Shown: positions 1 through 48,390 of the stretch, one piece after another
Layout: the number at the start of each line of letters is the position of its first letter
How positions within the stretch are numbered: position 1 is the stretch's first letter
Assembly (NCBI GenBank): GCA_964019425.1
Contig: OZ025794.1
Location: forward strand, 1,178,001-1,242,000
Direction: 5' to 3'
Origin: Flectonema sp. DT1601
Taxonomy: Eukaryota
Length of the DNA stretch: 64,000 nucleotides
Made by a program: the position numbers and the translations under genes
The notes under the pieces: model-generated
The model's database searches: none
Told to the model about the DNA's origin: nothing
Seen by the model: only the letters and a program-made list of their open reading frames with translations

Positions 1-2
1 GT

Positions 3-3000
3 AACTACTCCTCTCTTCAAGAAATGAGAGTTAGCACTTTTGACTTCTCAGATATGTACACCAACTTACCACATACAAAAATTAAAGCTGTTATTAATAC
101 ATTAGTCGAAGAATACATTGGAGACAATTTGATAGTTAGAGATAAACGAAGTCGAATTGGTAAAGATTTCTACTTGGCAAACGAATTTAACGAAGATGTG
201 CAAGTTGCTTACAACATAGAGGAGATCAAGGAACTACTGAATGTAATACTATCTAATTCTTATATTAAAAATGGTGACCATATGTTAAGGCAATGTCATG
301 GTATTCCAATGGGTTCTCAATGCTCTCCTCACATTGCTAATCTGTACTGCTTTGGTATCGAAAAGAACTGGATTGACAACATCATCCATAGCAATGGTTT
401 AAGTATTGCTAATGACAGGATAATCTTCAGATATATTGATGACTTTCTAATCTTTAGTAAGAATGAACCTACTCCACCTCCGCAAGCTGAATATCAAATG
501 TCATACACAGATACGTCACTTGGACGCAATGACATAGTTTTCCTAGGAATGAGAGTAAGATTTGAAGAAAGACCAAGAGGACATCCATTCATTCGTCTGT
601 CAATATGGGACAAAGAAAATCTGTTCAATTTTCAACCCATCAAATACACAAGCTCGACATCAAACGCACCAAGAAGCCTTGGTCCGGGCATATTGAAAGG
701 AGCCTTGTACAGAGCAGCAACCAATATCAACAATGACTTCGACTTATACTTGGAAATCGAAAAGGTGATTTACAGGCTACGCAGCCGAGGGTACTCGAAG
801 AAGAGCCTCTTCCCACAATACAAAGATTTCATTCTTAGTACATACTGGGATTTTCCGAAACAGAGAGATAACCTCCAGCAATTCTTTTTCAAGACAAATT
901 GGAGATATGACAAGGAACTACCCGTCACCTCTGAGAAGAAAACAATCCAACAGTACTACAAACTGAATGGACGAGATGACATTTATAACATGTTACTCGA
1001 TAAGAACGTTGGGTATGCAAAACTCAAAAAATGTAATAACACCATGGTTACTGCATTCCGGATTGCAAGTCACTCAATCACTAACAATCCAGATCAATGT
1101 CTAATATGTTCCACCGCAATAAACAAGAACACTGAGACACAGATTGATGCTTTGGATATTAAATATCGCAATGGGATATTTAAAGTAACCAAATTTTGCA
1201 AAGACTTCGACAAAATACTACCTGTTCCCATCAGTATTCTATCATACGACCAGGGTAAGACAACCCGTGAAATAATTAACAAACATGTGAATCACGAATG
1301 TCACATGGTTGTTGGTCGTACTAATGGAGGTTATTACTTTCCAATTACAAGTAAATATACGGAAAGTGATATTCAAAAAATCTTCCTCAAGGTTGACACG
1401 CCTGGAAAATCGGCGGAAGTTACAACAGAAGGGAAGTCAACTCCTAACACACCAGATACTGATGTAGTTATGACAGATAATACTACAGAAACGCAAGAAG
1501 ATGAAACGGAAAAATCTCAAACTGAAAAACCAGTTATGAAGAATGATAGAGGTCCTGAATGGGATATCTCGATCGATAAAAGGTTTCCTATTTCTATGCA
1601 CACTAAACCAGCTGAAGGCCTTAACAGCGGTGAGTGTGGTTGGGCCACCATTAATTTTATGGCTGATTATCTGAACATCGAGAGAATTCAGATATCTAAA
1701 GTCTTTAAGATTCAAGATGAGTTGGCAACACAAGAAATGAAGTGGTTAGGATTGGTTGAAATGTTCCAATTCAATCCTGATGGATGGTTTCACCAATTAG
1801 TCATATATGAGACAATTAAGATTCATCTGTCCTTAGAAATACACCATTGTACCAGCGCAGAAGATTTAGATAAAGTCAACAATATACTCAAAGAACAAAA
1901 CCTAAAACGCTTTCCATTCGTTATAATTACACGTAGATTAGCATACACTCACTATATCTTATTTATCGGAAAAGATACAGAGTATGCAGGATATGATATC
2001 ATTCAACACACTCCAAGTTATGAAACGTGGAACGACATTGCCAGGATATATCCTTTGGAAACATTTGACTATCACTTCGCATTCTGCCCTACAAAAAACA
2101 ATCCTATGGAGAAACTCCAATTTCCGAACCTCGACTATCCAACAATGGAGCCCCACATGGAAAACAAACAAGAGAAAGATACTCTTAGTCAAAAGACGAA
2201 TGATAACGATGACACAGCACTGTTATACGAGATGTTACAGAAATTTGAAGAGGATGATATCTCTACAACAGCTAAAGCCGCAGATCCATTGGATTTGAGA
2301 TCTTCGAATGAAAATACTACTCATAAGGAAGTCCTTCAAGAACCAAAGAAAGTCATTCAAGAACCGAAGGAAGTCATTCAAGAACCAAAGGAAGTCATTC
2401 AAGATCCAAAGAAAGTCATTCAAGATCCAAAGGAAGTCATTCAAGATCCAAAGAAAGTCATTCAAGATCCAAAGGAAGTCATTCAAGATCCAAAGGAAGT
2501 CATTCAAAATCCAGAGATAGATACACACCTAGATCCAAAAATAGGTCAGCAAGATGTGGATTTGGACGATAAGGAAGCAATAGGTGTTGCTAACAAGGCT
2601 TCTAAACCCAATACTCACTTCGACATCACTGATTACATAACTTCTGAAGATCAAAAGTCAAATGATTTTGTAAGTGGAACCACAAAGCTCACTAAGGTTC
2701 CCAATCATATCTTGAACACCAATCAGAATACTAACTTATGTCATATGGAATATGCTACACCAAATACCGATGTACATATGGAATCACCAATGACCACTAT
2801 TCTAACTGGTCCACTTTATAATACGGATACACAATTTAATTACGAAAATACAACACTTATAATTGCAACACCGCAGATTATACCAACCATCCCAAACTTT
2901 CGTAACCTATATCACAGCTCATCTGGGTGTCAAATCATGGCGGTATCACCTCCGAGAATATACAAAGTAAATACAATTGCTGCCATCTCACCCCCACAAG

Positions 3001-3059
3001 TCTATCACAACGGGGACAGCATTGTTGCCATCTCACCGCCAACTATCCTCCGATACTAA
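3..3059 (+). CDS. PLE reverse transcriptase polyprotein, 5'-truncated by the window: RT + CxxC/His cluster + Josephin-like domain + repeats
   Basis: The frame is open from position 3 (NYSSLQEMRVSTFDF), so the ATG at 24 is probably internal. YIDD at 432-443. Candidate protease triad: Cys 1635-1637, His 1950-1952, Asp 1995-1997. Confidence 0.85.
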   Translation, partial: NYSSLQEMRVSTFDFSDMYTNLPHTKIKAVINTLVEEYIGDNLIVRDKRSRIGKDFYLANEFNEDVQVAYNIEEIKELLNVILSNSYIKNGDHMLRQCHGIPMGSQCSPHIANLYCFGIEKNWIDNIIHSNGLSIANDRIIFRYIDDFLIFSKNEPTPPPQAEYQMSYTDTSLGRNDIVFLGMRVRFEERPRGHPFIRLSIWDKENLFNFQPIKYTSSTSNAPRSLGPGILKGALYRAATNINNDFDLYLEIEKVIYRLRSRGYSKKSLFPQYKDFILSTYWDFPKQRDNLQQFFFKTNWRYDKELPVTSEKKTIQQYYKLNGRDDIYNMLLDKNVGYAKLKKCNNTMVTAFRIASHSITNNPDQCLICSTAINKNTETQIDALDIKYRNGIFKVTKFCKDFDKILPVPISILSYDQGKTTREIINKHVNHECHMVVGRTNGGYYFPITSKYTESDIQKIFLKVDTPGKSAEVTTEGKSTPNTPDTDVVMTDNTTETQEDETEKSQTEKPVMKNDRGPEWDISIDKRFPISMHTKPAEGLNSGECGWATINFMADYLNIERIQISKVFKIQDELATQEMKWLGLVEMFQFNPDGWFHQLVIYETIKIHLSLEIHHCTSAEDLDKVNNILKEQNLKRFPFVIITRRLAYTHYILFIGKDTEYAGYDIIQHTPSYETWNDIARIYPLETFDYHFAFCPTKNNPMEKLQFPNLDYPTMEPHMENKQEKDTLSQKTNDNDDTALLYEMLQKFEEDDISTTAKAADPLDLRSSNENTTHKEVLQEPKKVIQEPKEVIQEPKEVIQDPKKVIQDPKEVIQDPKKVIQDPKEVIQDPKEVIQNPEIDTHLDPKIGQQDVDLDDKEAIGVANKASKPNTHFDITDYITSEDQKSNDFVSGTTKLTKVPNHILNTNQNTNLCHMEYATPNTDVHMESPMTTILTGPLYNTDTQFNYENTTLIIATPQIIPTIPNFRNLYHSSSGCQIMAVSPPRIYKVNTIAAISPPQVYHNGDSIVAISPPTILRY
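2325..2513 (+). repeat. Coding tandem repeat, 9 x 21 bp (K[E/K]V[I/L]Q[E/D/N]P)
   Basis: Unit close to AAGGAAGTCATTCAAGATCCA, repeated 9 times in frame within the RT ORF. Confidence 0.95.
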
Positions 3060-4866
3060 GAGTCCAACAGATGTTACTTCACCAACTCGGATGGATATTG
3101 ATATTGACACGGTGATTGCCGTCAATAACAGAAGTCTATATGATATTGACATCATCCCACCACCACATGTGGATACTCTTATAAGTGCCAAGAAAAAGAG
3201 TAACGACTCAATTCATAAAACTTGCCTTACCGATGTCGATACCAATAGCTACAACGAGATATCACCACCACAAACGGATGTACATATGTTGATCAATAAC
3301 AATGATCTCAACGTAATTGAGCCTATTGCACCACCACATACGGATGTTCATACGGTAATTAACAACAACAGTCTCGAGACATTCGAGTATATTTCACCAC
3401 CGCAGACTGGTATTCATATGCCTATAGTTATCGACAACAACAGTATCAACGCAAACGAACTTGCTTCACCACCACAAACTAATGTTCATATGGAGGTCAG
3501 AAACAATAGTCTCATTGCGACTGAGGCTATATCACCACCGTGTTTAGAAACACCTGAACATCGACATGTGTTTGAAACACCGGTAAAACAAAAGTCGGGA
3601 GGCAAAATCAAAACTCCGACAACCAACAAGATTGTCCCACAAGAACCACTAACTTGTTGGAATGGACACAATCGGGAGCTTATTTATGATTTAGCAATGA
3701 ATAGGCAACCTAACAAGATTGTTACAACATACACTGCACCATCGTTAAAAGTTACAACTCCGAAAACAGCAGCACGAAATAACACTGTTGTCATAGACAC
3801 AGAAGATAGTATGAACCCCGTAACTTCAATGCCGGAAAGTTTAAGTGATACCCTTGAACCTTGTTCAAAACGTAACAAAAAGTCCAATATACTGTCTCAT
3901 AAACATGCTATGAAGCAATCCAAAAAGAAAGCTTTCAATAATGGATCTCACGAGTCAATTATCCCTAAAACTAAAGTCATTACGCAATCACATACGCAGA
4001 TTAAGGATAAAACATCGGAACCTATCAATGAAGAATCTAGTAAGATACTTCCCCAACTTAAAGATGAAACCGGAAGTAAGAAAGATGAGACAACGTCGCA
4101 TGTTGAACTAGAAAAGGCAACAGAAGTTAATACAATAGTTGAGAACTCAATGACTGACGTGCCAACTACAACATCCTCGTCAGAACCATCCTACAAAGAT
4201 ACAACGCATATCAAGAGGAAATGTAAATATTGCTTCAAGACTAAAAAATCAATTATTGATCATGTCCACATATGCGCAATATTCAGAGCCTCAAAGGACT
4301 TTCCATATTACATGGATCATGATAATACAACGTATGAAGTTAACAACAGTGATGGCTCCAACAAGATCACAATGGTCATCAAGGAGAAGAAGAAACTAAA
4401 CGTGCGGTCTATCAAAAGAGGTGCAAAGCTAGTAACACAAATTCTTGAGAAAGAGGATAGTACACTAACTACACCAAAAAGAGATACCCGCAAAAGATTA
4501 AATTCTGAAAGTCCGATTCCAATAATCGAATTTAATGGATACATGGACAAGGACAAGAGAAAAAAGTTAGAGAATAAGAACGGATCTAAAAGTAAACGCA
4601 AGATCAAAGTTGAGGTTAATAAGATGCTAGTCGCTTCAGCAAAAAAGAAGGAGAAGTCGAAATATACAAAGAGATTAAATTCTGAAAGTCCTATGCAGCC
4701 GCTACTAAGAAAAGATGTACGAAAGAAACGAGCCAAACAAGAAGATATCAACACACCTAAAAGTGAAGATAAAGAGAACGTTACGAACATCTTAGATACT
4801 CCTTCGACTCCTGTTTTACATGATTTTGAAGATGTATCAGATTATGCATCAGATCTTGATAATTAA
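3040..4866 (+). CDS. Frameshifted continuation of the PLE ORF: ISPP repeats, CxxC...HxHxC zinc-finger-like motif, Lys-rich tail
   Basis: Overlaps ORF1 in the +1 frame. The [I/A]SPP motif series starts in ORF1 and continues here. KCKYCFKTKKSIIDHVHIC motif; KRLNSESP occurs twice. Confidence 0.7.
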   Translation, partial: QLSSDTKSPTDVTSPTRMDIDIDTVIAVNNRSLYDIDIIPPPHVDTLISAKKKSNDSIHKTCLTDVDTNSYNEISPPQTDVHMLINNNDLNVIEPIAPPHTDVHTVINNNSLETFEYISPPQTGIHMPIVIDNNSINANELASPPQTNVHMEVRNNSLIATEAISPPCLETPEHRHVFETPVKQKSGGKIKTPTTNKIVPQEPLTCWNGHNRELIYDLAMNRQPNKIVTTYTAPSLKVTTPKTAARNNTVVIDTEDSMNPVTSMPESLSDTLEPCSKRNKKSNILSHKHAMKQSKKKAFNNGSHESIIPKTKVITQSHTQIKDKTSEPINEESSKILPQLKDETGSKKDETTSHVELEKATEVNTIVENSMTDVPTTTSSSEPSYKDTTHIKRKCKYCFKTKKSIIDHVHICAIFRASKDFPYYMDHDNTTYEVNNSDGSNKITMVIKEKKKLNVRSIKRGAKLVTQILEKEDSTLTTPKRDTRKRLNSESPIPIIEFNGYMDKDKRKKLENKNGSKSKRKIKVEVNKMLVASAKKKEKSKYTKRLNSESPMQPLLRKDVRKKRAKQEDINTPKSEDKENVTNILDTPSTPVLHDFEDVSDYASDLDN

Positions 4867-5026
4867 TCATCTTATACTTTCTACATTTATTGTAGAAGAG
4901 TGCTCCACTAGTAGTGCGCTACGAACTAGTAATAACAAGAAGAATGTTTTTTTTATAAACATTATAACAAAGTAACTACATCCTAGTCTTGCTAACTAAG
5001 ATGCTTCAGTCACAACAGATGATTGA

Positions 5027-5094
5027 CTTACTTCTACACCATACTGATGATGAGAGAATAGAGGTAAGAGGTATATGGATTACTCTCGAAACCT
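5027..5094 (+). ncRNA. Hammerhead-ribozyme-like motif with non-canonical strand order
   Basis: Core CTGATGA 5044-5050 and GAAA 5088-5091. Stem I CCATA 5039-5043/TATGG 5074-5078. Stem II GAGAG 5052-5056/CTCTC 5083-5087. Stem III AGGT 5069-5072/ACCT 5091-5094. GUA cleavage triplet 5071-5073. Extra 10-bp helix 5027-5036/5059-5068. Confidence 0.7.
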
Positions 5095-5610
5095 AATAGT
5101 TACTTTAAAAGGCTAAGTTAAGCATCACACCTAGTCACTGTATCTCAGAACTAATGTTAAATTATCGTTATGTTTTTTATGATACAAAACATTTGTATTT
5201 TACGTACAAAATCAAACAGTTAACCCCCCAGACAGCACATATGTGTTGTCGATACTGACTGTTGGTCTTTTTTACATGGCAACCGGAATTGGTCGGACGC
5301 CACTTTAGTTTTAGCCAGTTTCAAGTTGCTTTCCATCCTTTAATATTAGTCTCAAGTTACCCCCTTCGCATCAGATACATATTCTAAAATGAAAGCTTAA
5401 GCTTCTGTCGTTTTTTCAGTTTAATTTTATTACTTATTTCAGTATTATAAAATTTCTTATTGTTTTCTACATTGTCAAACTATCACCCTTACTTCACATC
5501 AGATACATAAATTATTAAAAAAAACAAACAAACTATAATTAATATAAACCAAGAGAGCAAGAGAAAAGGAAACCTTTAAATATCCTTTTTCCTCTTTGTG
5601 TACTAGCAGT

Positions 5611-8600
5611 ATGAAATCTGCTATTATCTCGGTTGGGGCAATTCTTTGCCTTTTCGGGCAGGCTGATGCTGCACCTGTCACAACATGCAGTCCGAAAGGA
5701 CTGCGTCAGTTTGGAGAGCTTCATCAAGATGTAAAGCATCTCCAAGGATCAATTTTCCAAAAGACTGCTGCGTATGTTACTTTATTTTATTGAAACGAGA
5801 GATACCCTTTTTTTTTTTTTTTGCCCCCCTTCTTCTTTAATGTTAGTTTCCCGAGCGAAAGAGAATCGCGGGAGCAGCAGCAGCAATAGCGTTTTACTTT
5901 CCTTTACAGATTTGTTTTCCAGGTGCGCACAAGCGAAACCAAAGCTGGTGTTGTAAGTTATTCATTATAGTGAGGCGACGATTCATTTTTTAAGTCGCAT
6001 GAATTTTATTTTTCGCCGTCTCAATATCTGTTTTTATTCCTGTTTCGCAATCGTTCATATGAGCAAGGGACAAAGGAAAGATGTTTTTCTTTGCGTTGAC
6101 GTCCTTACAAAGGGAAACGATTTGTTTAAATTAACAACAAACAAAAACAACACCAACCAAACAGTGATGTTCAGGCAAGACAGGATGCTGTCGTTTGTGA
6201 TAACTGCGAAACTTTCACCGTGCCGAGCGTTCAAACACAAGAGCCATTGAACATCCATGTTGATTATTCTCTTCTTGATTCCCAAAGGTTTGCCTGTCAG
6301 GGATCAAACGGAGAAACTATTCAACTTGCCCACGGTGCCACTGGCGGTGCGAGTGAGGCCAAGGACGCGTATACTACTACTGACGGTCAGACCTACAACT
6401 GTGAGAGTACGTGGGTTATTGATAACACGAAGTTGACTAGAATTAGAACCATCGTTTCTGAAGCCATCAAACGCATTCGCACTGGTATTATGGCCTTGAA
6501 GAGATCCGAGGGGGAATCCGTTATTCAGGTTACTAACAACCAGGCCAACTGTAACGCCAAGGACGGGCTTACCGATGTGTTTAGCAACCTTCCTTTGACT
6601 GCTACCACTGCAGACTTTTACCTTTTCGTCGCTGCTAACCCGGTCTTGATCTACAACAGAGATGGTACTAGAATTCAGAGTAACGCTGCTGCATGGCCTT
6701 GTCACTTTGCAAAGCAGAGTTTTAGACCAATTGTTGGTATGCTAACGATCCAGCCTGATCAAATCTTCGGAGACACTGATTACATGGCATCTGTTGTACT
6801 TCACGAGTTGGTCCAGGCACTCGGATGGACACCTGAACTGGCTGAAAAATACGCTGACTGGAGTGACGACTACACTCAGGCACCTACCCCCGTGGAAGCT
6901 GACTTGATGTTCCAGACTCAGACTCGTCACAGTAAACGTGTTTTCGACACAGCTGGAAACCGCAACCAACACGACAACGGGCTTTCCACCGATGCATTGT
7001 ACAGGACGGGATTTGATGGATGGCGGAATTCAGTTCCTATCGGTGTGCCTACCGAGGTTACTCTTGTGAGCTCTAAGAAGGTTATCCAGCAGGCAAGACT
7101 TCACTTCAATTGCCAGTCGATGACAGGATTGGAAGTTGAGGATTACACGCACACGGCGATGGGATACGGTACCGGTTTTACTGACTTCCCTTCGCGCTTC
7201 ACAGCCCTGTGGGAGCGTCGTATTACGAGGGGAGAAGTTATGAACATGCAAGTTGATGTTGGTGCGGTGCTTTCCGGTCTTACTCTTGCTATGCTTGATG
7301 ACACCGGTTTTTACAGAGCTGATTTCAATTCTGCAGAATACCTCTCGTGGGGTTTCGATGCCGGTTGCGTGATGGCACGAGAGACTTGCTACCATTGGTA
7401 CCACCAACCAAGCTTAAACAACTACCAGTGTTTCTTTGAAAGTATCCTCCAACCTGGCGCCGGATCACGTTTAACTGCTAAGCAGTGTACTGTCGACGGA
7501 GGTCGCATTGGAACTTGCAACAGTAGAAGGATGTTCTTCTCAAGTAACAGTCCTCCTACGGTTCCATTGGAGTACACTTCCCCAGCCATGTGGAAGGTCG
7601 GACTTCTGAGGTCTATACCCGCTGATATTGCAGAGAGATTGGCTCGTCAAAATGGTGGTTGTGACGAAATGATGGACCACTGTCCTATTTACGAGCCGGT
7701 GGGTGCTGAATCGAGTTGTCTGGCGCCTGCTATTTTAAATGGGGCAGGGCAAGACTGCACTGGTTCTCTCTGCCGACCTTACAGCATTGCTGGATCGGCC
7801 TCTGGGTGTTTCACGTCAAACATGGAATACGCCGATCGTGTGACCAACCCGCAGCCTTTTTCTGGTAAGTGTTTACCATATTCCTGCGTTTCTCGGGGAG
7901 ACAAATTTGACCTCATTATGGAAGTTGGGAACTCAACTGTTACCTGTACCGATCAGGGAGGTTTTAAAGAATTGGTGTATGTTGGTGGCTTTGGATCTTC
8001 ATCGATCAGGGGATTTGTGTCGTGTCCTTATTCTGCAACGAGATACTGCTCAACTCGTCAGGAACTGGAGAGGATTGATATTCAATTCAAAGACGAAGCT
8101 GGAAAGACCACTGTCGCTGGAGAACGTCGTGAATTTATAATTCAAGCAACCACCCGCACTCAAGCCGGACGCACAGTCGTAGCAATTGGTGCGCAAAACC
8201 AGATTGTAATGTGCTTGATTGAGGGGGAGGTCGAATCTGCCGCAACTGACATCGTTGCCACGCCTCCAGCAGGAGCACTTCAGGCAGGAGAGTCCTGCAA
8301 GGGACAGTACCTTTCCAGACTTGACCCTGCCACCGGAGAAGTTACCTTTAGAACCATCTTTAGATCCCTTCATGCGAAGGTCTTATTTTACGCAGTTGGA
8401 GGAAACTTGGGTGTTAGCCACGTCAGAACTTCTCTCATCATCAGACCAGGTACTCCGGACCGCGTTCGTATCCAAAGCCCTTCCAACGGTACCGAGGTTG
8501 AAAGTGGAATCGGATTTGACATCAGGGTAGACATCGTTGACCTGCTAGGCAATCCAACCAGCGCACCTTCCGATTATTCAACCTGCCCATGGGGTGCAAT

Positions 8601-35600: not shown

Positions 35601-38329
35601 CGAGGGACAGGAGTTCTTTGGTAACCCATGGAGGTGCTTGAGAGTTCCACTCGCTTTGAACGGCGACCCAGCAGCCAGATATGCCTTTGTTCCTCCTCGC
35701 AGTCCACCGGCACCGGTCATTAAGAGCAGTATTGTTTGCAACAGGCACTCTGACTGCCATCCATACAGATGTGGTTCAATTAGAGGAGTTCCTGACTACG
35801 AATTGGCTCAGGACACCTGTCAGATTACTTGTGAGATCTTCGATGACTGCTCTGAAGGATTCGCTTGTTTCAACAAGTTCTGTATCCAGTTGAGAGCACC
35901 TGCTGCTCCATGTTCGATTGACCGTCAGTGTGCTTCGGGACACTGCGTTGATGGAATCTGTTGTAACACTGCGTGTGACAGTCCATGTCAGACATGCAAC
36001 AACCTCGGTGTTTGTGGATGGGTTGATGTTGGAACTGATGATAGAAATGACTGTGGTTCGTGTATGACTTGCGTTGAGGCCATCGCTGCTGAGAACGACG
36101 GATCGCTCCGTACCTGCGGACTGGTGAACGATGGAATTGACAGAAAGTTCGACTGCGGAAACAACGGAGTTTGCAACGGAAATGGTGCGTGCCGCTGTGA
36201 CGCCAACCTCGAAACCGGATTCTGGGCAGGAGAAAAGTGTGACCGCTGCTTCAGGGGATACTCTGGTCCGCTGTGCACAAGGATTGATGCTCGCTTGGCG
36301 CCACCGGCACCAGCAACCAGAGGAGCTCCTCCACAGACGGTGAACGCCCCCCTCACTGTTGAAAGAAGAGCTATTCAATTCCCAATTAGAGTTCTCGACT
36401 TCTCTACTCAAATCATTCCAGGAAACATTCACAACCTTGTCGGTGAACCAGATGCTGCTGAAGACTACTACGTGCAGGATGAACCACACAGAAGCGCTGC
36501 TTGGGAACCAGTTCAGGTATGTTTATTTGTTATATCATCGTTTTGTGGAAAGAGTGAGTGAACACCGCGGTCGGGGAGTTTTCTACTTTGTCAGAAATGG
36601 AAAAAAAAAAAAAAAAAAAAAAAACAATCGCACCACAACAAAAACAGTACTACTGCGACCGTAGAAGAACTTACAAGGGACCATGCAGACAGCCAACCAG
36701 AAAGGTTGACTGGCAGAATGCGCTTCAGTACGTAGTGTTGGAGTACGAGGAGCCAGTCTACTTGTCTCAGGTATGTTGTTATTTACTTTAGTGAACTGAT
36801 GTCTTTTATTATTATATTAGAATGTGTGGAGGAACGTGAGAGGAAAAAAAAAAAGAAGGCAGAAAAGTAGCAAACAACTAAACAACAGGTTTATGTATTC
36901 GAGAACGCTGAGCCAGGTTCCGTCGTGTCCATCTGGGCTCAGCCAGCGCAGAAGGGTGCTGATGCTTCCCCAGGTGGAGGTGCTCCAGGAAACGATGTCG
37001 TGGGTGCCACTGGTGTTGTCGGAGCCGCGGCCGCAGTCAGAAGACCAACAAACGTCAACGCTCAGGTACTTGAGAACGTCACTCCGGAAACCGCAAGCGC
37101 TGCTGCCACCGCCACCACCGTCCAAGCGTCTTCCGTTAACACCAATCCGCAGAACTTCGAACTCATTTGGAGCAGAGAGAACCCTGTATGTGTTTTTAGT
37201 TAGTTGTTGTAGTTGTTTCAGGGATTTAACGAAATCAATGTCGTCGTTGATATTTTAGTTCTAATTTAGGATATTTCTTTTGGATGAAAAAAATATTCGG
37301 AAACCAAAAGAGAACAAAAAAAAACAGGAATTCTACACCGAATCCATCTCTCGTATCTACACACCTGCTTCAAACGCCAACCCGTTTGCACACCCAAGCA
37401 CTCCGGTGTTGTTGCGTGCAGGAGACCCAGACTCTGCTGTTAACGTGCAGTGGAAGACGAAGGTGATCAAGTTGGTTATTCAGCCAAACAGCAACAGAGT
37501 TTCACAGATTGACTCGGTTGCCATTCTCGGATTCTCTGTCTCAAGTCTAAACAGAACTGGTGAATGCCCGGGAGCAACTTCCGTTCCAACTGGTAATGGA
37601 AGAACCATCGACGTCATGTGCAACGGTAACGGTGTTTGCAGAGCAAAGGGATGTGAGTGTAAGGGTAACTGGGATGGTGCCGACTGTGGTAACTGCAAGT
37701 TCGGATGGGCCGGTGAGGACTGTGAAGTCAGCGTCGTCCGCAGCGTCCCAGCGATCAACTTCTGCGCCGTCGCCATGTTCGAAGACCTTCAGGACTTCGA
37801 AGGAGACACTCTTGAGATTCGTTGGATGATCCAGGACTACACTTTTAGATCATCGAGAGTTATGAGACCTCGTCATTTTGGTACTAAGTTTGTGTCACCA
37901 CAAATCACTTTGGGTGACCATTCTCACGTTCGTATCCAATCTGGATTCTTCATTATGGACATGCCAAGATCTGAGGACTCTGGTGTTATCTCTCGTGTTG
38001 CAAGACGTAGAACTTCAGCTCCAGGTAGAGACAGAACTGAAACTGAGAGACAAGAAGATGGAGAGAGAGTTATCTACTTGAAGAGAGCCCCATATGTCAC
38101 TGGTGTGAACGTTATCGGTTCAGGAAAGGGAGACACTTCTGATCAAATGGACATCACCACATCATGGGATTCTTCAACTCTCAGTGTTGAATTTGAGATC
38201 TGGTCCCCAGATATCGCTGACAACGCCAACAGAGGAAACCACAGATTCACTCTCACTTACTTCATTGTTGAATCATGCACCTACCCATCACAGTCGGGTA
38301 CCGACAACCCAGACACGGAATTGAACTAG
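5611..38329 (+). CDS. Giant secreted multidomain protein (~10,644 aa) with an N-terminal degenerate leishmanolysin/GP63 (peptidase M8) domain. Exons 5611-5771, 6165-36516, 36648-36770, 36889-37185, 37328-38329
   Basis: Signal peptide MKSAIISVGAILCLFGQADA. Four GTATGT...AACAG introns all preserve frame (31,935 nt spliced CDS). M8-like motifs RPIVG, HELVQALG, ARLHFNC, GLEVED, LTLAMLDDTGFY, LSWG..AGC. C-type lectin ~8580-9110, many D-x-x-G-N Ig-like repeats, WSC/PAN-like modules, Kelch ~19340-20780, laminin-type EGF and Cys-rich repeats. Confidence 0.9.
5772..6164 (+). other. Spliceosomal intron 1 (393 nt, phase 2)
   Basis: GC|GTATGT ... CAACCAAACAG|T joins the signal-peptide exon in frame to the 30-kb ORF (..QKTAA-DVQARQD..). 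Confidence 0.8.
36517..36647 (+). other. Spliceosomal intron 2 (131 nt, phase 0)
   Basis: CAG|GTATGT ... ACAAAAACAG|TAC; removes an in-frame stop and a poly-A run. Confidence 0.85.
36771..36888 (+). other. Spliceosomal intron 3 (118 nt, phase 0)
   Basis: CAG|GTATGT ... AAACAACAG|GTT; yields continuous YEEPVYLSQ-VYVFENAEPGSVVSIWA. Confidence 0.85.
37186..37327 (+). other. Spliceosomal intron 4 (142 nt, phase 0)
   Basis: CCT|GTATGT ... AAAAAACAG|GAA; joins in frame to the terminal exon. Confidence 0.85.
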
Positions 38330-39037: not shown

Positions 39038-40794
39038 TAATGTAAGAAAACCGTAGGAGTTTTTTTTTGATTAAAGACGTTGCCTCAACGAAGGATGTGG
39101 GGTCTGCACTTTATTTATGTCAGAAGAGTATTTATCCCCCATCATGACCCTTTTTTGATGTCCTTCTTCTTGAAATGAACGAAGGTCCCAACCCCAGCCA
39201 CTTGGGTTAGTCTGCAGCTTTGTTCCTGGAAGGAGTGAAAGAAAAAAAGAATGCTCTCTGTATGTGGGAAAAAGACGAAAATTTCGTTTTTTCTATCTTT
39301 TTGACGTCTTTTTTTGTTTGTGGAATTCGGCTAACATGAAATCAGGATGGTGGAGGAAGGTTCTTCGCAGTCTTTCCGTCCTCTCACCCGAGCCTGTTTT
39401 ATTATGTGTGATGGTGTTCGCGAAACTCAAAACTGTTTATGGTTTTGGGCCACATACTTAGAAATTATTCTGTAGTCTATTTGAAGAGACTCATGGTTCT
39501 TCACGTGATTGACTTTTTCTTGCACTTTTCCTGGAAAGGAAGTGTTCCCCAGACAATACCATTCACGCAACACTTTGAGTTCTTGATTAAGCATGTAAGA
39601 TATTTATTCTTGTGCGTCTCGTGGTTAAGGAGCTTCAGCTCTTTTTTTTTACCATTCGACTGCTGTCATTGCTTAACACTTCTTAGCACTGCAAATCATA
39701 TGCAACACCAATAATGGGTTGGCGTTTAGTTGTTTTTTTACCTCCCCCCTCTCTCTCCCCTGATAACCCGTGCGTGGAAATCTCATGGTGATTTTCTGTA
39801 AAGCTACGCAAATGCGAGTTTTACGGAAAGACTTAGCACCGTGTAGTTACCAAACGCAATCTGCGAGCGATTTTATATCATATTCGAAACAGCTTCAGTT
39901 CAATTATCGTGTCCCGGAAGGGAGACGATCGGTCGGAGCTGTCTGCAAACTGTCTTGATTTAGTTTCCCCTTCTTTGCTCCCATTATTTTACTCCTTGAT
40001 TTGCTTTCCTTTCCTTTCGAACTTACCTGGATGCTTTTTCTCGAAAATTCGAAATGTGGAAAAAAAATTCACAGAAAAAAAAGAAAAGAAAACAAGCTCG
40101 TTCACAATCTCACCCTCCAATTCCTTATCCCCATTCTAATTATGTGCATATTATAGTGATTGTCGCTTTTGCGGTATCAGGATCTTCGTTTCATTTTCTC
40201 ACACAAGGTCTTGTTTTTGCATTATATTTGCAAACATTTTCCCTATAACCAGTTGCTCGGCTGCTGAGGGGTTGAAAGTTAATGTAAGGCTGGCTTTTTC
40301 CCTTCTGCACTTGCACTGTTCTGTAGCAGCTCTTTTTTGATGTTTCCGTCATTTGTTTGGTCTCTTTTTACGCTTTCCCCTCCACCCCCGCCATTCGATT
40401 TTTTTATTTTATTTCCTTTATCGAACATTCCAGCAAAGAGAAAAAAAAAAAAAAAAAAAAAAAAAACTGGTTGATATCAACAGGCAACTCCCTTTTATTA
40501 GTATCTGCAACTTTCTTGAGCCTTCAGGGTGCTTGTCATCATCTCCCTTTGTGGCGCTAGGAAGCAACAGTTGATGATCCGTTTACTTTTAATTATCATT
40601 TTTTCTTTTTACAGAAGAGAACACTGCAGCTAATATTTAAAAGAAAGAACAAGCAAACCGGATAGTCAGTTATTCATAGAAGCACAACAATCCTATAAAG
40701 GTAGATCGCAACTCCCTCTCAGCAGAAAGTCGTAAGCTAAATAACACATTACGAATTATATTATTTCTTCAGTATTCCATATCTGCTGAGTAAA

Positions 40795-43700
40795 ATGGAA
40801 GAAAGTTGTACCCGTCAGCATTTGGTAGTTACGTTGACAGCCAACCCACCGACTGTTCGAGTTGTTGGTCCCGTTGCTGCCGAAACGGTTTGGAGGATGA
40901 AGGCTGCTCTGCAGTCAGAATTAACAAGTGGAAAAGGGTGGAGTGAATTGAGAGAAAAACCACTACCTCATTGGATAATTCGTTTTGACTCTGAACACGT
41001 CGATCCTGTTATAAAAACAAGTTTCCTACTACTACAGATAATTGAAACCTTAGAGACAAGAGTATGTGGAAAGTGGATGATACTTGATAGCCATGGCACA
41101 GCTGATCAAGCATTAATACCTGGTGCGAATGCTGCTTGTGTTAGACATCCTTTCTCTGATGATCCAGAGAAAGCATCATTCACAACAACTCTCTTCTTTG
41201 AGAGAATCGTAGAAACGAAAATTGTAAACAACTACTGTAAACATGAAGCCTCTACTCCTTCAGAGATCGCAACCCTTTCCTCAAAGGGGAAAGGCGTTAC
41301 AGAGGAACACAAAGAACTAAAACTAATGCTACAAGGAATTGAAGCAGGCTACATAACTGTTAACATGCCCGATGCTGATGGACAAACAGCCCTTCACCTC
41401 GCATGCAGCATTGCACAAAGAATTGTTGCGGAAGATGCAAAAGAGAATATAACATTTTTGTTAGAAATGGGTGCCAATCCGATGTTGCTGAACCGAGACA
41501 AGGTCCGCCCCGTTGATTATGCTCTGAGGCAATCCGTACCTCACAGTGAGAATAATTGTTTGTTAGCGATCAATAAGTACCTTCTAATTGTACATAAGAA
41601 ACTCATGGAGAGAAAGCCGCCCGACCCGATAGCTGAACTCAATCACAGTGATATTTCTGACTGCTGTTTTTCAAGAGTCGTGTCCAGCATGGTTTACTAC
41701 TCATCTGATGTGTCAGCGTCGTTGTGTTGTAGAGATCTTGTGGGATGTGTTTCAGCTGTAGTCTTTACACCTCTTCCTCCGGGAAGTTCATTCATTGTAA
41801 TCCCTTATAGTGATTCGTTACACACAGGTAGGGTACTTGATTATATTTTACTTAGCAATGGCTACCTGCTAAAAGTTGATCACAGAACTTCAGAACCAAT
41901 TACTACGCAATATCAAACGGACTTTCGTTGTAAACGTAGACTGTCAACAATGATCTGGGTCGATGATTCCATAGCAGTTAAACAGAAATTGAACGCAAAC
42001 GACACCCAGACATCACGTCGTAAGCTGCGGCCTACCTACTTGGATGCGATGAAAAAAGAGTTAGACAGTTTAGAAGAGGAAGATCGCGAGGCGGAAAAAA
42101 CAAAAATTGGATCGAGATCGAGATCGAGTATTATTGATAGCGACACGGACATCTCTCTGGCATTTGCTAAGAACTTGTTGCTGTATCCGCATAATCAAAT
42201 CGAAAGCAGTCAGGAAGAAAATACGAAGCCTGTTCCTGATACGTCTGACTTAGCAACACAGACATCATCATCACCTGGATGTTGGGTTGGTATACTTGCT
42301 GCTATTGTCACACAATCTGAATTAGATTTGCCATCTGGAGAAGTAGCACCTGACAGAATGGTTTGTCTTTACATCCCACCTTTGTGTGGCACCACCACCG
42401 ATTCTGGAAAAGCCCTCTCTGACGCTATTCAAAAGGGATGGTCTGAACTCCCTTTCATTAAAAAAAGGGAATCAGACCAACCTCTCCGATCTTTAGAATT
42501 CCAGCTGACCCAATCCCAAGTTATTACATGTATCGGATCCAGTTCAAGTCCGGGCCAGGGAATAATTGCAATCGGATCAGAATCTGGAGGCTACGGTGTT
42601 TATAATTCTGTGACGATGGATTTTTCGTATGTAGAAGTTGATCCTTCTGAAATGAAGGAATCTCGTGGTAATTTAGAAGCGGACACGGAGCCTCTAAATA
42701 TCTCATCTATAGAGGTGCAGTGTTCGAACAGTATCACGACTGTTATTTTATTCTCAAAAGGCATTTCCATTTTTGAAGCGAAACTACCTCAGGGAAATAA
42801 AGGTTCATCGCCACTTGTAGAAAAATATCGTTTTTCTAGGGGGCTTGAAACCTGCAGTGGCATTTTTCATCCAAATAATAAAAATTTAATTATTTATTTC
42901 AAAGATGGTATTGTATATTGTTACTGTACTAAGTTACAGCAGGTGTGTTGTGTAGCACCATTGCTTCTTACAACGTATGAGGTCGATCGAAAAAAAGAAG
43001 ACGACGACGCATCTGATGTAGCGACACTAAGATACTCTTCAGGAACTCAGCATCTCTCCTTCTCATCTGATGGGGAATATCTTATGAGACGTAATGAAAT
43101 GTATCATTGTGTTAGTATTTATTCATGGAGTCCGTTCTTTAAGAATTGTATAACAAGAATGCATCAGGCAATGTCTGTCGATAACACACCAGTGGATATA
43201 TATTGTCCATTGTTGCAGCATTGTATTCCAAAGACTTTGTTAAAAGCGTTTTTATCTCAGCAACACAGCAGTCAGAAATCAGTTATTGAACTGACAGAAC
43301 AATTGGTGTCGTTTTACAATGCGACGGAGAGTTGGGGTCTTCCGACGTCGTTTTGTGATGCTGATGGAAGGACTGCAATTCATTTGGGAATGATATTGGC
43401 GTCAGCAACTGATTTGAGAATATCACAATATGCATCGGAAGTAGTAACGAAATTATTACAAAAACAATGTAATCTTTTCACGTGTGACTACTCTCAACTC
43501 CGTCCCTACGATGCATTGAATTCTTCCTGTGGTGGTACTCTACAACTTTCAGATTCTACTTCAACTAATTTAGCTCTTAAAGCTGTGATTCAGTACAAAC
43601 AGAACGTTATTCATGAACTTAGTGAGAACCCAGTACTTCTTAATGTTGTATCGGAGCTTTCTGACAGATGCAGTCAGGCATCATTTTCTGGATTTTGTGA

Positions 43701-46700
43701 TAGTCTAGTATACTTTACTAGTTTAGAAAATGATTTGTATGTGGTTAACATTGAGAAAAGGTTTAGTGCGAGGATAGGATCGTATCCTGAGACTATAAGG
43801 ATGGCTGTTTTCCCATATTCGATTGCGATGCATGGTCCTCATCGTTGTAAGGATTTTATTATCTTATCGAACGGACTAATTCTAGTCATCGACTACATCA
43901 ATGGTATTACAGAAACACCAATTGTATCTCAAAAACAAACACTACTCAGAGCTGACGTACTTGTTGGTGCCAACCACGGATGCTGCTTAGCAGTTTCTTG
44001 TATAAGAACAAAAAATTATACAAAGCCTCAAAAAGGACACAACGCAACATCATACATGGATTACAGCATGGGAGCTGTTGCTGCAATATGTTACAACGAA
44101 TCAACAGATGCAAGAGAGATAAGAGTGTTGCAGATATCGTCTATATTATATTCTGATAATAAAACAGGATTAGATTTTATTTGCGGAGCCATAGACATGG
44201 GATGGGTCTCTAAAAACGCTCTCTCCACAGTCATAAGTCTTCCTTCTGAAGTAATCCCATCTCAAATGTCTGCAACGAACACTGAAAAACACACTGCCGG
44301 CTACGTTATGACCGTACTTGAGTGTCCGTATGATGGAATAACTGTTGGTTATGTGCAGGGTCCTAATAGAACCATTTTAATTCAGAGTAGTCGTTTTTCG
44401 GATGAAGGGTGTTCAGTCGGATGTAGCATTAAAATAACAGAAACTGATGACGATAAGGATGTGCTTACGGCAGTCCGATGCAGCCGTTCCATTGAAATAT
44501 TTCAAATCTTTATCAAAGAAATTGACAATTCTTCTGCCAGTCGAATAGAAGAGTTGTCCCCAATAATCGACATCCCTGGATGTGATCATATGTCTGAACC
44601 AGTCTCTGCTACTTTCTGTAATAAAAAAATAAATACTCACGATCACCTTCTATACATCAGAGAAGGTACTCTTTTCATAATTGACATACAAACCAAAAGC
44701 ATAACTGAAATAACCCGAACTGTGTTATCAACAGCAGAACAAAGGCGAAAATTAAGTGATGGAGACGACCCTTCAGAAGTCGGAGTGTCGGGGTATCAGT
44801 TATTGAATATGAGTGGTGGTGATGAATACTTATTTAGATTAAATACTTTTTACGAAACCGTTGTGTTGTATGAGTGGGATTCTATAAAAAAAAGATTAGA
44901 ATCCGGATTTATAAATAATGCTGTTCCCTTGCAAATGACACCCGAGGATAGACCTCCACGGAGAATCGAACTGCGCGGGTCATTACGACGGATGTCAACT
45001 ATAAATAAATCTCTTAGAGAAAAGCGACATGAGCTTTTAACACTTATTGATGCCATCACAGCAGGGATGGTAAATGTTAACTTTGTTGATAGTGATGGCA
45101 AGTCTACTTGTCACATTGCTTGTGACATAGCTCATCTCTTGCCTGCAGCTGAGTCGGTTAACATTATTTACTTTCTAATAACGAAGGGTGCGAATTTGTA
45201 TCTTTGCGACAACACAGATGCTCACAGTCGTCCAATTGATATTTTATTCTCAAGTGGATCTCAACGTGAGAATCTCTCAAAAGCAATATCTCGTTATCAG
45301 CAACAAACGCTACACACAGAACTACCTGTCCCTGATGAGCCTAAGTATGTTGGAGAAGATTATGTTTTACAAGTTTCTGTATCAGAGGTCTCTCCCTGTA
45401 CATTCTTTGTTATGTCTTTGCAAGACAGTAATCAGAGAACGTTGAATGAGAATCGCTATGCTGACCGACTCACAAAAATCACCTCATACAATGTAGAGAC
45501 GAACACTGTTGGTGTAGTACGAGACTCGATGAGAGGCACATCTTTTAAAGTGATTCCACACAGTAAGGCGATTCACGGGACTACCGGAGGTATTGATTTT
45601 ATAATAACACAGGATATGATTATATCCGTATTGTTCACATCAAAGGGAACAGCAATTGATGAACACTTTATTCCTATAGTTGATTTATTTCCAGGACTAT
45701 CTCCAGTCTCTGGTGATTTAGATAATCTTATTACTTTCTTGTGGGCTCCCGACACCATCTCAGACGAACAAGACCCCCCTGAAGAGTACAGAGATATGTT
45801 TGGATCTGTTGCGTATCCCTGTGATAATAATCAGTTTAAAATTATGAGGATACCGAGAATCGAACATGATGATCGACATAGAGCAAAATACTTTATAATG
45901 CTGATGAAGTTATCAAGTCCAGTTGAAGTGACTGTTGGATTTAAAGAAGGGGACTTTGGAGATTGTTTGAAAATAGCAACCTCTTCATGGCATCGCATTA
46001 CTAATATAGGCCTTTACTACATAGTAGCTGCTGCTCCTCCTTTGGGATGTCAGGTGACAGTTATATCACATAGAGGAACAGTACTTCAACAGTCATTTGA
46101 GAAAGATATGTTTTCATCAGAGCCAGCAACCCTAATGAATCTCACGAACGTTGCTAATGACAATCTTCGATGTCCTCCTCACATCAGACCACTGAGCACT
46201 CCTTTTAGGATGTATGCTCAGTCAGAGTATTTTGTTGTAGTCACTTGTTTTTCTTTTAAATTATACAAAATTGATTTGGTGTTCGCAGCAGAATCAAAGC
46301 AAAGCTCAAATACGATTTCATTCATAAATAAAACGAAAATAATAATGAGAGAAACTGATACTCTTGACTGTATGACTGCAATGTTTGTACCTGGTGGTGG
46401 TGATGATTACTTGTACTTACTTGTTGATAATGAGCTGTTGGGATATTCATTGCGCGATGATATTATGTGTGCTCTGGGAACCTTAGGACTACACACCGTA
46501 GATAGACAACGATTAAGCTTTGATGGTGACAAAACTGAATCAAAACTCATCGGAGAGCTCTCACTGAAATCTTCTTTTTCCGGAAGGTTTTTTTCTACAT
46601 TCAATTCATACACTTCGACATTTGCTATTTACGATGTGAAATCATATTATTTTGCGTTGGAATCCACACTCTCCAGACCAGTTGTAAGTCAGAATGCTAT

Positions 46701-48390
46701 CTACGTTGAACTGTTGTGTCTTAATCAAAAAACTGCCAAACAGAATGTAAAAAGTATAATCCAGCCTCATAGAGTAGGAAACAATAGACGAAAAGAATCA
46801 TTAGTCGGATACTACGGAAGACTATCGACTTTAATGTTATCTTCGAGAGGTTTACTTATGAAAATGATAACCGGAATTAGAAAAGGTATTCCACCAAATC
46901 TTAGAGACGCTGATAAAAGAACAGCTTTGCATCACGTATTTTCATTATCTGGTTTACTTTGTGGAAGTGATATAAAAAATATGACTGCTTTCTTGTTGAA
47001 TCTTGGAGCTTCTTTATTCGTCTCCGATTCCCAAGGTAAAACACCCATAGACCTAATACCCCAAGATACACATACACCACCAGACACAAGTGCTTTGCAA
47101 GCAGTAATTCAGTACCACAGTAGTAAGAATATTTTAGATAATTTAACAGTAGTCGCTGCTGGTGGAGCTCTGTTTAAGTATCCTTCAGTAATTGTTATTG
47201 AACAATCAAGTATAGTGAATGCTGGTTGTTATGCTGTTTGTGAACGTGATGGTGCGACTCTTATAGTATTGTTGCCTTTAAACAAAAAACCAGAACCGGG
47301 ATGGTCAGCTCCGACTCTGTACCACACAACTGAGGAGACAGGTTCTTCGTTGAGAGTTATAACGGCAACGCATCATAATTATAAAAATACGACAACAGAT
47401 ATCCTTCTTACGTCAACTGGGGATATGATTAAAGTAACGTACTCTACTACAGGTTCATATCTATCTCATCAAACATTCGAGTGTGGTCTTACGTTTTTTG
47501 TTGATAAAACACAACCTTTAGGACATGCTTCTTCGGGATACGTTTCCGATTCTGTAATCTCATTTACGCTCACTGAAGGAAATGAAATAAAATTATTTTC
47601 TGTTGAGATCGATGATGAATTAGACTTTCAGAAAATAGCATCTGAATTCAAGACGCAGGTGGGATCTGAAAGAATTGTAAAACAGTTGGTTGGTAATAAA
47701 CCAGTAGCGGTTTCTCAAGTTAAATATAAAGATCGATTGGCGACGTTTGTTCTTCTCTGCAATGGAGATATTGTACTGATAGTTGATGAAGAAGTGTGTT
47801 TGTTAATAGGAGGTTATGAGTTCTCTTCGGGGATATCTTTTAGTAGCTGTTTCAGTGAAGGGCAATTTCATTTTGCGATTTATAGCGAAGAGTTGGTCGT
47901 CAGTTGTGTTTCTCTCGATTCGATTAATTTTTGTACTCCTTCTGTTGAAAATATTTTAAAATCAAAGATTACAATCCTTTCTGTAGTATCTGACAACTCA
48001 ACCAGTCTAATTAGTGGTTGTTTCCATCCATCAGATGATTTATTTATATTTATAAAAGATAATGATCCTTGTGTTTATAATCTTGTTGACAGTTCCTTTA
48101 CTTTGATTGGTCCGTTGGATCGTTCTGACTCTGCGATCTCAAAGAATGAAGTTGAGAAGTCATCATCATCGTTAACGTTGATATCATTCTCTCAAGATGG
48201 TCAGGGTTTACTTTGTAATAATATTTTCAATGAAACTCTTTCGGTCTACAACTGGACAGATGTAACGACACGACTGGAAGAGTTATCGTTGCAACCCAAG
48301 ATTGGAAGCAACGCCGTGTTTCTTCCTCCTCAAATTGGAGAGATATCTGTTCGCGACGTTTACGAGATCGTAAAAAACGACGCAGACTAG
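40795..48390 (+). CDS. 2531-aa protein with four diverged modules, each a short ankyrin-repeat unit followed by a probable beta-propeller
   Basis: Ankyrin-like motifs DADGQTALHLA (~41370), DADGRTAIHLG (~43357), DSDGKSTCHIA (~45088), DADKRTALHHV (~46906). Each module ends in an (L/I)SFSxDGxxL...N...(S/A)xYxW-like segment. Confidence 0.8.
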   Translation: MEESCTRQHLVVTLTANPPTVRVVGPVAAETVWRMKAALQSELTSGKGWSELREKPLPHWIIRFDSEHVDPVIKTSFLLLQIIETLETRVCGKWMILDSHGTADQALIPGANAACVRHPFSDDPEKASFTTTLFFERIVETKIVNNYCKHEASTPSEIATLSSKGKGVTEEHKELKLMLQGIEAGYITVNMPDADGQTALHLACSIAQRIVAEDAKENITFLLEMGANPMLLNRDKVRPVDYALRQSVPHSENNCLLAINKYLLIVHKKLMERKPPDPIAELNHSDISDCCFSRVVSSMVYYSSDVSASLCCRDLVGCVSAVVFTPLPPGSSFIVIPYSDSLHTGRVLDYILLSNGYLLKVDHRTSEPITTQYQTDFRCKRRLSTMIWVDDSIAVKQKLNANDTQTSRRKLRPTYLDAMKKELDSLEEEDREAEKTKIGSRSRSSIIDSDTDISLAFAKNLLLYPHNQIESSQEENTKPVPDTSDLATQTSSSPGCWVGILAAIVTQSELDLPSGEVAPDRMVCLYIPPLCGTTTDSGKALSDAIQKGWSELPFIKKRESDQPLRSLEFQLTQSQVITCIGSSSSPGQGIIAIGSESGGYGVYNSVTMDFSYVEVDPSEMKESRGNLEADTEPLNISSIEVQCSNSITTVILFSKGISIFEAKLPQGNKGSSPLVEKYRFSRGLETCSGIFHPNNKNLIIYFKDGIVYCYCTKLQQVCCVAPLLLTTYEVDRKKEDDDASDVATLRYSSGTQHLSFSSDGEYLMRRNEMYHCVSIYSWSPFFKNCITRMHQAMSVDNTPVDIYCPLLQHCIPKTLLKAFLSQQHSSQKSVIELTEQLVSFYNATESWGLPTSFCDADGRTAIHLGMILASATDLRISQYASEVVTKLLQKQCNLFTCDYSQLRPYDALNSSCGGTLQLSDSTSTNLALKAVIQYKQNVIHELSENPVLLNVVSELSDRCSQASFSGFCDSLVYFTSLENDLYVVNIEKRFSARIGSYPETIRMAVFPYSIAMHGPHRCKDFIILSNGLILVIDYINGITETPIVSQKQTLLRADVLVGANHGCCLAVSCIRTKNYTKPQKGHNATSYMDYSMGAVAAICYNESTDAREIRVLQISSILYSDNKTGLDFICGAIDMGWVSKNALSTVISLPSEVIPSQMSATNTEKHTAGYVMTVLECPYDGITVGYVQGPNRTILIQSSRFSDEGCSVGCSIKITETDDDKDVLTAVRCSRSIEIFQIFIKEIDNSSASRIEELSPIIDIPGCDHMSEPVSATFCNKKINTHDHLLYIREGTLFIIDIQTKSITEITRTVLSTAEQRRKLSDGDDPSEVGVSGYQLLNMSGGDEYLFRLNTFYETVVLYEWDSIKKRLESGFINNAVPLQMTPEDRPPRRIELRGSLRRMSTINKSLREKRHELLTLIDAITAGMVNVNFVDSDGKSTCHIACDIAHLLPAAESVNIIYFLITKGANLYLCDNTDAHSRPIDILFSSGSQRENLSKAISRYQQQTLHTELPVPDEPKYVGEDYVLQVSVSEVSPCTFFVMSLQDSNQRTLNENRYADRLTKITSYNVETNTVGVVRDSMRGTSFKVIPHSKAIHGTTGGIDFIITQDMIISVLFTSKGTAIDEHFIPIVDLFPGLSPVSGDLDNLITFLWAPDTISDEQDPPEEYRDMFGSVAYPCDNNQFKIMRIPRIEHDDRHRAKYFIMLMKLSSPVEVTVGFKEGDFGDCLKIATSSWHRITNIGLYYIVAAAPPLGCQVTVISHRGTVLQQSFEKDMFSSEPATLMNLTNVANDNLRCPPHIRPLSTPFRMYAQSEYFVVVTCFSFKLYKIDLVFAAESKQSSNTISFINKTKIIMRETDTLDCMTAMFVPGGGDDYLYLLVDNELLGYSLRDDIMCALGTLGLHTVDRQRLSFDGDKTESKLIGELSLKSSFSGRFFSTFNSYTSTFAIYDVKSYYFALESTLSRPVVSQNAIYVELLCLNQKTAKQNVKSIIQPHRVGNNRRKESLVGYYGRLSTLMLSSRGLLMKMITGIRKGIPPNLRDADKRTALHHVFSLSGLLCGSDIKNMTAFLLNLGASLFVSDSQGKTPIDLIPQDTHTPPDTSALQAVIQYHSSKNILDNLTVVAAGGALFKYPSVIVIEQSSIVNAGCYAVCERDGATLIVLLPLNKKPEPGWSAPTLYHTTEETGSSLRVITATHHNYKNTTTDILLTSTGDMIKVTYSTTGSYLSHQTFECGLTFFVDKTQPLGHASSGYVSDSVISFTLTEGNEIKLFSVEIDDELDFQKIASEFKTQVGSERIVKQLVGNKPVAVSQVKYKDRLATFVLLCNGDIVLIVDEEVCLLIGGYEFSSGISFSSCFSEGQFHFAIYSEELVVSCVSLDSINFCTPSVENILKSKITILSVVSDNSTSLISGCFHPSDDLFIFIKDNDPCVYNLVDSSFTLIGPLDRSDSAISKNEVEKSSSSLTLISFSQDGQGLLCNNIFNETLSVYNWTDVTTRLEELSLQPKIGSNAVFLPPQIGEISVRDVYEIVKNDAD

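Follow-up and report, generated by a model that had tools for sequence, protein, structure and literature searches.

A divergent Josephin-like protease domain that follows the reverse transcriptase in a Chlamys-type Penelope-like element, at a position where relatives carry several deubiquitinase and deSUMOylase families

The stretch analysed here (64,000 nucleotides, referred to as the window) begins within an open reading frame of the + strand, 3..3059 (1018 amino acids, open at its 5' end), and the next frame follows at 2971..4866. RVT_1 is the sole Pfam family matched in ORF 3..3059 (E 5.7e-8), and the best relatives of this reverse transcriptase (RT) are of the Penelope-like element (PLE) type, several of them with an N-terminal GIY-YIG, so that the Penelope-like assignment made by the initial annotation stands. 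The element comprises the following features:

3..920, + strand: C-terminal half (motif A to thumb) of a Penelope-like RT, matched by Pfam RVT_1, its 5' end cut by the window start
921..1391, + strand: segment of 157 amino acids leading from thumb to protease, seen only in the window's family, with no significant Pfam match
1575..2090, + strand: Josephin-like cysteine protease domain, from conservation, profile match, AF2 model and fold searches
2325..2520, + strand: coding 21-bp tandem repeat (7-amino-acid unit) detected by a repeat finder, with a copy number that differs among sister copies
3047..3052, + strand: frameshift (frame 3 to frame 1) splitting the long ORF 3' of the protease, from tblastn of P0009 and P0010
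3052..4866, + strand: C-terminal portion of that polyprotein, of low complexity; identity to P0009 residues 1340-1943 is 98%
5027..5094, + strand: hammerhead ribozyme predicted in the 3' UTR by a pattern scan, of type CSG (non-circularly permuted)

Three sister proteins, P0006, P0009 and P0010, join ORFs 3..3059 and 2971..4866 in a single chain that is intact across the frameshift site, while the C-terminal ends of two others, P0003 and P0014, are the same shifted tail as in the window copy. ATG 24, from which the initial annotation had started the protein, is not the start: the ORF runs off the window, and the sister copy P0016 has about 420 residues further upstream, with CxC and DK motifs present. 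The CxC motif, whose position upstream of the RT falls outside the window, is also found in P0003 and P0009. The third residue of the DK motif is not conserved (DKT in sister copies, DKG in the relatives P0184 and P0188), and the part of PMC8557442 covered here likewise defines the Chlamys DK motif without a conserved third residue. The window protein is a member of a 35-member cluster, and the 10 different longest-contig values among the 15 members listed indicate that many copies of the element exist. It is best classed as a multi-copy Penelope-like retrotransposon of the Chlamys type. Between RT motifs A and B, where Chlamys elements have the insertion-in-fingers, the distance from the motif A Asp to the motif B Gly is 86 amino acids, versus about 94, counted by eye, in the figure rows of Chlamys-1_cBra. 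One relative, P0160, resembles the Chlamys-1_cBra RT rows by eye; our trees contained no named Chlamys sequence.

The RT thumb and the protease are separated by the 157-residue segment plus a low-complexity linker. The segment (window 921-1391, + strand) contains Cys and His residues, and its relatives all belong to the window's family. A decayed USP or Josephin remnant at nt 921-1391 was considered and rejected, with a score of 12.5 versus 12.9 +/- 2.3 for shuffles. Further downstream, a motif scan detected a C2HC zinc-finger-like motif in the C-terminal tail, at about nt 4224-4277 (+ strand), which may correspond to the 'unknown C/H domain' described for the Chara families discussed below. 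C2HC/C2H2 finger-like motifs occur in the tails of many relatives, with up to five copies in P0029.

Other genes of the window were noted in passing. A very large gene extends over about 5572-38329 (+ strand), with an open frame of 10,143 amino acids (6130-36561) and a signal-peptide-like start near 5572; its N-terminal region looks metalloprotease-like (leishmanolysin/GP63-like by eye, with a zinc motif that appears altered), and it contains many repeats and kelch-like and EGF-like parts, the ORF 37265-38329 giving an EGF Pfam match. An ORF of 2,549 amino acids with ankyrin repeats occupies 40741-48390 (+ strand). Four tandem paralogues of about 220 amino acids (54449-55195, 56950-57696, 58764-59423 and 60626-61369, + strand) resemble, by eye, AlkB-type 2-oxoglutarate/Fe(II) oxygenases; there is also a tandem array with a 21-bp unit, at about 55360-55970.

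Behind the polyprotein, our pattern scan found a single match in the 64 kb, at 5027-5094, and 0 matches in 4000 shuffles of nt 4867-5600. Its blocks come in the order core, cleavage site, GAAA. Stems I (5039-5043/5074-5078), II (5052-5056/5083-5087) and III (5069-5072/5091-5094) have 5, 5 and 4 bp, the core is at 5044-5050, the cut is predicted after A5073, and an extra 10-bp helix is formed by 5027-5036/5059-5068. An Rfam search of nt 1-6500 found nothing, and the pseudoknot-free fold has a z of 0.07, this type of folding being incapable of representing the hammerhead topology. Type CSG comprises CSG-1 and CSG-2, two metagenome sequences that cleave according to the part of Eckert et al. (2023, PMC10085705) considered here. 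The window motif shares with them the order core, cleavage site, GAAA and the presence of an added helix; unlike these metagenomic sequences, it belongs to a Chlamys-type retroelement, in whose 3' UTR it lies. On this sequence pattern we predict that 5027-5094 is a type-CSG hammerhead ribozyme.

A strict hammerhead scan of 80 PLE loci gave 0 matches and a relaxed one gave 2, of which L188 is convincing: at L188:3455-3560 (+ strand), about 1 kb behind a PLE RT ORF, lies a type-CSG motif whose stems measure 9, 6 and 7 bp and which likewise has an added helix. The other match, in L144, lies inside an ORF and was discarded as likely due to chance. In the part of File S5 considered, the same block order is visible by eye at the 3' ends of Naiad_Hpol and of the preceding Naiad consensus record (both ends in view), with stems that differ but pair. 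We found no paper linking type CSG to PLEs in the literature covered, which included part of 10.64898/2026.07.22.740005. The permuted motif would offer a reason why the Chlamys group has been reported without canonical ribozymes.

The initial annotation had placed a Josephin-like protease at 1590..2090. The protease is there, with limits that we revise to about nt 1575-2090. Its three catalytic-type residues, counted from ATG 24, are C538 (nt 1635), H643 (nt 1950) and D658 (nt 1995), all read in the RT's own frame within ORF 3..3059 of the + strand; both the residue numbers and the 105 and 15 spacing given earlier proved correct. Relatives of the domain were collected by searching 1.84 billion representatives with amino acids 1-709, plus two profile searches, and the resulting conservation alignment has 8 rows of divergent relatives (pairwise identity 14-64%), 4 of which span the whole triad. 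Each of C538, H643 and D658 is invariant in 6/6 covering rows, and H643 and D658 are the sole invariant columns of the 8-row alignment past residue 593. Such invariance across divergent relatives argues that the triad is more than chance, and the assignment made from one sequence is borne out by this conservation and by its register with PLE Josephins. The usual position of the oxyanion Gln, which we take to be five residues before the catalytic Cys as in ataxin-3, is occupied by Leu533 in the window and by Leu or Val in 6/6 rows, in agreement with the earlier remark that this Gln was not obvious. The Gln is also missing in 5/6 of the Josephin-like rows from other PLEs, and present in P0035. 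The residue after the His is Y644 in the window and Tyr or Phe in 6/6 rows. An aromatic gatekeeper at this place is typical of conventional deubiquitinases (DUBs) and many clippases, and bacterial Josephins likewise have Cys-His-Asp triads, as stated in the part of bioRxiv 10.1101/2024.07.24.604956 covered here.

We modelled the domain with AF2 from 11 family rows, with no Josephin rows in the input; a single-sequence model (pLDDT 32.6) was not used. The model has a mean pLDDT of 79 and a pTM of 0.77, and is predicted to place Cys 25 where helix 23-36 begins, in its first turn, His 130 right before one strand (131-136) and Asp 145 right after the next (141-144). Among 48,161 PDB chains, its best structural match is ATXN3L (Z 12.2, rmsd 3.2, 147 residues aligned), followed by JOSD2 (Z 11.7), PcJOS (8.9), and then the ComA C39 domain and BpJOS (8.4). 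Foldseek returned five matches at E<=0.001, with PcJOS in the top two places and then ataxin-3, ComA and ATXN3L, that is, four Josephins out of five. In a viral structure library there was no match at E<=0.001, and the second row was an Orpheovirus Josephin. The predicted fold and the Z-scored and Foldseek searches thus put Josephins on top, and a papain-like fold, which the initial annotation had made its claim depend on, is what the model displays. Identity to solved Josephins is 13-15%.

At the sequence level, Pfam matched neither Josephin (PF02099) nor C39, whether the query was the ORF, the domain or one of 8 family rows, and family alignments run as HMMs against PDB sequences yielded no meaningful match. 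The family profile was compared with a profile of six PLE-borne Josephin-like domains, 4/6 of which have a Pfam Josephin match (three above cut-off). It matched with a probability of 93% and a score of 49, compared with a maximum of 19 over 100 column shuffles and 11-14 for USP, OTU and Ulp1, and Cys, Asn+6, Gly, His and Asp were all aligned in register. The family HMM, run against the stored proteins, had as its only non-family matches the P0035 cluster of Pfam Josephins (E ~1e-5), and the link to PF02099 is therefore only transitive, via P0035. Because Pfam misses it and the oxyanion Gln is Leu or Val, we file the domain as Josephin-like, outside PF02099; the modelled structure and the profile match support a Josephin-like papain fold of this kind. 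The domain extends the Josephin family to a form missed by Pfam.

Like ATXN3, ATXN3L and JOSD2 (PF02099), the domain has the predicted fold, a Cys-His spacing of 105, an Asn at Cys+6 and an aromatic residue after the His. It differs from them, beyond the low identity, in having Asp for Asn as the third residue, no Gln at Cys-5 and a fusion to an RT. The Josephin fold and the Cys-His-Asp triad are shared with PcJOS, BpJOS and PaJOS (bioRxiv 10.1101/2024.07.24.604956). However, those proteins are secreted bacterial effectors and not mobile-element cargo, and their structural score (Z 8.3-8.9 for bacterial Josephins in our fold search, versus 8.4 for the best non-Josephin) is below that of eukaryotic Josephins. 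Bacterial Josephins include DUBs and ubiquitin clippases, according to the covered part of the same source.

Two relatives, P0184 and P0188, are full-length, with an N-terminal GIY-YIG, CxC, RT and then the Josephin-like domain, which in both comes directly after the thumb and is followed by about 50 residues. Their RT cores are 39-41% identical to that of the window's family and their domains 29-35%. The GIY-YIG of P0188 has a Pfam E of 0.007, below cut-off. Chlamys GIY-YIG endonucleases are marked by the lack of a CCHH motif, and none was seen by eye in P0184 or P0188. P0022, from a Flectonema neradi transcriptome, bears the start of the domain, and the closest of six RT cores compared is from Diplonema papillatum (46%), which makes a diplonemid the likely host. 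Several other searches for relatives yielded little: a region search with a single protein recovered only the window's own cluster (1/87 candidates), metagenome contigs scanned for the domain gave 0 relatives among 191 pattern matches, the family HMM had 0 matches in 80 PLE loci, and no sequencing runs matching nt 1-2300 were listed.

The initial annotation did not know Josephin domains as standard cargo of PLEs. The cargo is present here as it proposed, but three Chlamys families of Chara braunii (Chlamys-1/-4/-6_cBra) have previously been published with a C-terminal Josephin-like motif (Craig et al. 2021, PMC8557442, part covered). Craig et al. cite Dualen as Josephin precedent, and the metadata rows of their paper that were covered list no USP, OTU or Ulp1 (PMC8557442). 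Like the Chara Chlamys elements, ours has one long ORF (about 1,800 amino acids there, more than 2,000 here), CxC and DK motifs and no canonical hammerhead, and its C-terminal extension contains both a Josephin-like domain and a motif rich in Cys and His. Compared with the Chara domain as described, the window's domain diverges too far for Pfam to match it and carries a signature of its own at the Cys. A diplonemid is the likely host here, and the nearest RT relatives bear USP, not Josephin.

The slot behind the thumb was surveyed in the 150 best hits of the search against 1.84 billion representatives. An extension of at least 80 residues past the estimated thumb end is present in 47 of them, all of which were scanned. 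Thirteen of these extended RT relatives have a domain above the Pfam cut-off at the slot (USP 8, Josephin 3, OTU 1 and Ulp1 1), and three more have sub-cut-off USP or Josephin matches. A look at other PLE ORFs, which the initial annotation had proposed, thus finds Josephin alongside three other families. The remaining 31 are without a Pfam DUB/ULP match, although 8 of them look protease-like (whole or partial) by eye; they also include one Mab-21 match and one chimeric kinesin gene model. Catalytic motifs are present in all of the 10 slot protease domains that were checked. Since many RT relatives stop at the thumb and 31 of the 47 have no DUB/ULP match, some elements of this kind evidently do without the domain. 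A further set consists of 80 loci retained out of 289 from metagenomes; 28 of the 80 have a long extension, with Ulp1 in 9 and USP in 1, several being near-duplicates. We conclude that several families occupy the slot; the data do not give the order of gains.

Some members of these sets are unusual. P0125 has a PLE-type RT followed by a Mab-21/cGAS-like region in the protease's place (Mab-21_C at cut-off, nucleotidyltransferase part weak). In L130, a USP-like domain (about 745-1705, + strand) lies upstream of the RT in the same 2,125-residue ORF, an N-terminal and not a C-terminal placement. P0019, P0021 and P0206 are Diplonema-type gene models, with a ubiquitin hydrolase label or fused to kinesin, that represent PLE proteins or chimeras; some annotated host deubiquitinases are therefore likely to be element cargo.

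In a 25-row RT tree, which is unrooted, the window's family falls within a group of 17 rows with 98/97 support, whose internal order is not settled by the tree and in which the window's row is a long branch. The group contains 10 USP-type rows (three of them partial or degenerate), 4 with the window's domain and 3 without any. Monophyly of the four carriers of the window's domain was not rejected by an AU test (p 0.064), a result that does not call for a domain swap between the window's RT and the other carriers. In the open-access literature we found nothing on USP, OTU or Ulp1 in PLEs, nor on Chlamys elements in diplonemids, and the covered parts of PMC5718144, PMC9940879 and PMC10161547 have nothing on protease-bearing PLEs. 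What is new is the four-family slot, the divergent Josephin subtype and the likely diplonemid host; Josephin cargo in PLEs was already known.

Combinations of this kind exist in other mobile elements. Dualen non-LTR elements reportedly carry Josephin (Kojima and Fujiwara 2005, as cited in PMC8557442). In Ginger1 transposases, OTU or Ulp1 alternate at the C-terminus, and a role for the ubiquitin pathway was suggested (Bao et al. 2010, PMC2836005, part covered). As in Dualen and Ginger1, a transposition enzyme is here followed by a C-terminal ubiquitin or SUMO protease, the Ginger1 slot likewise accepting OTU or Ulp1. Those are other element classes, however, whereas we find four families and a divergent Josephin subtype in one PLE group.

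What might the protease do? It is fused to the RT, its catalytic-type residues are conserved, and relatives have USP, Josephin, OTU or Ulp1 at the same position. We consider it probable that the Josephin-like domain behind this Chlamys-type RT acts as a deubiquitinase or ubiquitin-like deconjugase that aids transposition. The single large endonuclease-RT-protease protein would bind its own RNA, and the tethered protease may strip ubiquitin either from the protein itself or, where the element inserts, from host factors of repair or silencing, by which means the complex could escape degradation. The chemistry, cutting a ubiquitin-like tag, appears to be fixed and the enzyme family interchangeable.

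The initial annotation had suggested two roles, removal of ubiquitin-like modifiers and polyprotein processing. On the sequences at hand, the former is better supported and the latter less so, since unrelated deubiquitinase and deSUMOylase families share the position and there is no conserved Gly-Gly between domains. A cis-acting protease that frees the RT and endonuclease from the 2,000-residue polyprotein, or trims its low-complexity tail, would suit the one very long ORF, the flexible linker and the long tail. The altered oxyanion position hints at a changed specificity, and viral papain-like proteases combine processing with deubiquitination. Yet no Gly-Gly site was seen at the equivalent interdomain place in the 8 proteins checked, the domain of P0184 and P0188 sits right behind the thumb with only some 50 residues to follow, and processing does not require four ubiquitin- or SUMO-specific enzyme families in one slot, so that we regard such a role as unlikely.

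An even less probable alternative is that the domain represents a different type of papain-like peptidase, either C39-like or new, whose substrate is unrelated to ubiquitin. It draws on the ESM Atlas feature search, which pointed to C39, C39_2 and C70 clusters at 0.95-0.96 and did not indicate Josephin (the same search with a second family member gave no usable match), and on the fourth rank of the ComA C39 domain in both fold searches. The human Josephins, however, exceed ComA by more than 3 Z units, with 138-147 residues aligned versus 117, and there is a sequence-level link to Pfam-positive Josephins of sister elements. We give still less credence to a weak or dead enzyme retained as a ubiquitin-binding or scaffold module. 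Such a module would account for the absence of the oxyanion Gln and for the frameshift downstream in the window copy; but the catalytic-type residues, all three invariant, stand among variable neighbours, the frameshift is 3' of the domain, and in P0006, P0009 and P0010 that site is intact. It is mainly because the Gln is missing that a non-ubiquitin peptidase or a dead module keeps any place beside the deconjugase reading.

Returning to that reading, a more speculative extension, which we hold rather less likely than its opposite, is that Chlamys-type PLEs maintain a swappable slot, filled repeatedly (by USP, OTU, Ulp1 or Josephin), because tagging with ubiquitin or SUMO is a means by which protist hosts restrain retroelements. 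The window's domain might then be the founder of a new Josephin subfamily that lacks the oxyanion Gln, and possibly a ubiquitin clippase carried by a eukaryotic element, whose cut would destroy the tag for good.

Ever since the description of Dualen and Ginger, one could only guess why transposons carry ubiquitin and SUMO proteases. Four unrelated deconjugase families interchanging at one position would constitute a natural experiment, in which the activity itself is what has been selected. Matched elements with and without the domain exist, including in the cultured model Diplonema papillatum.
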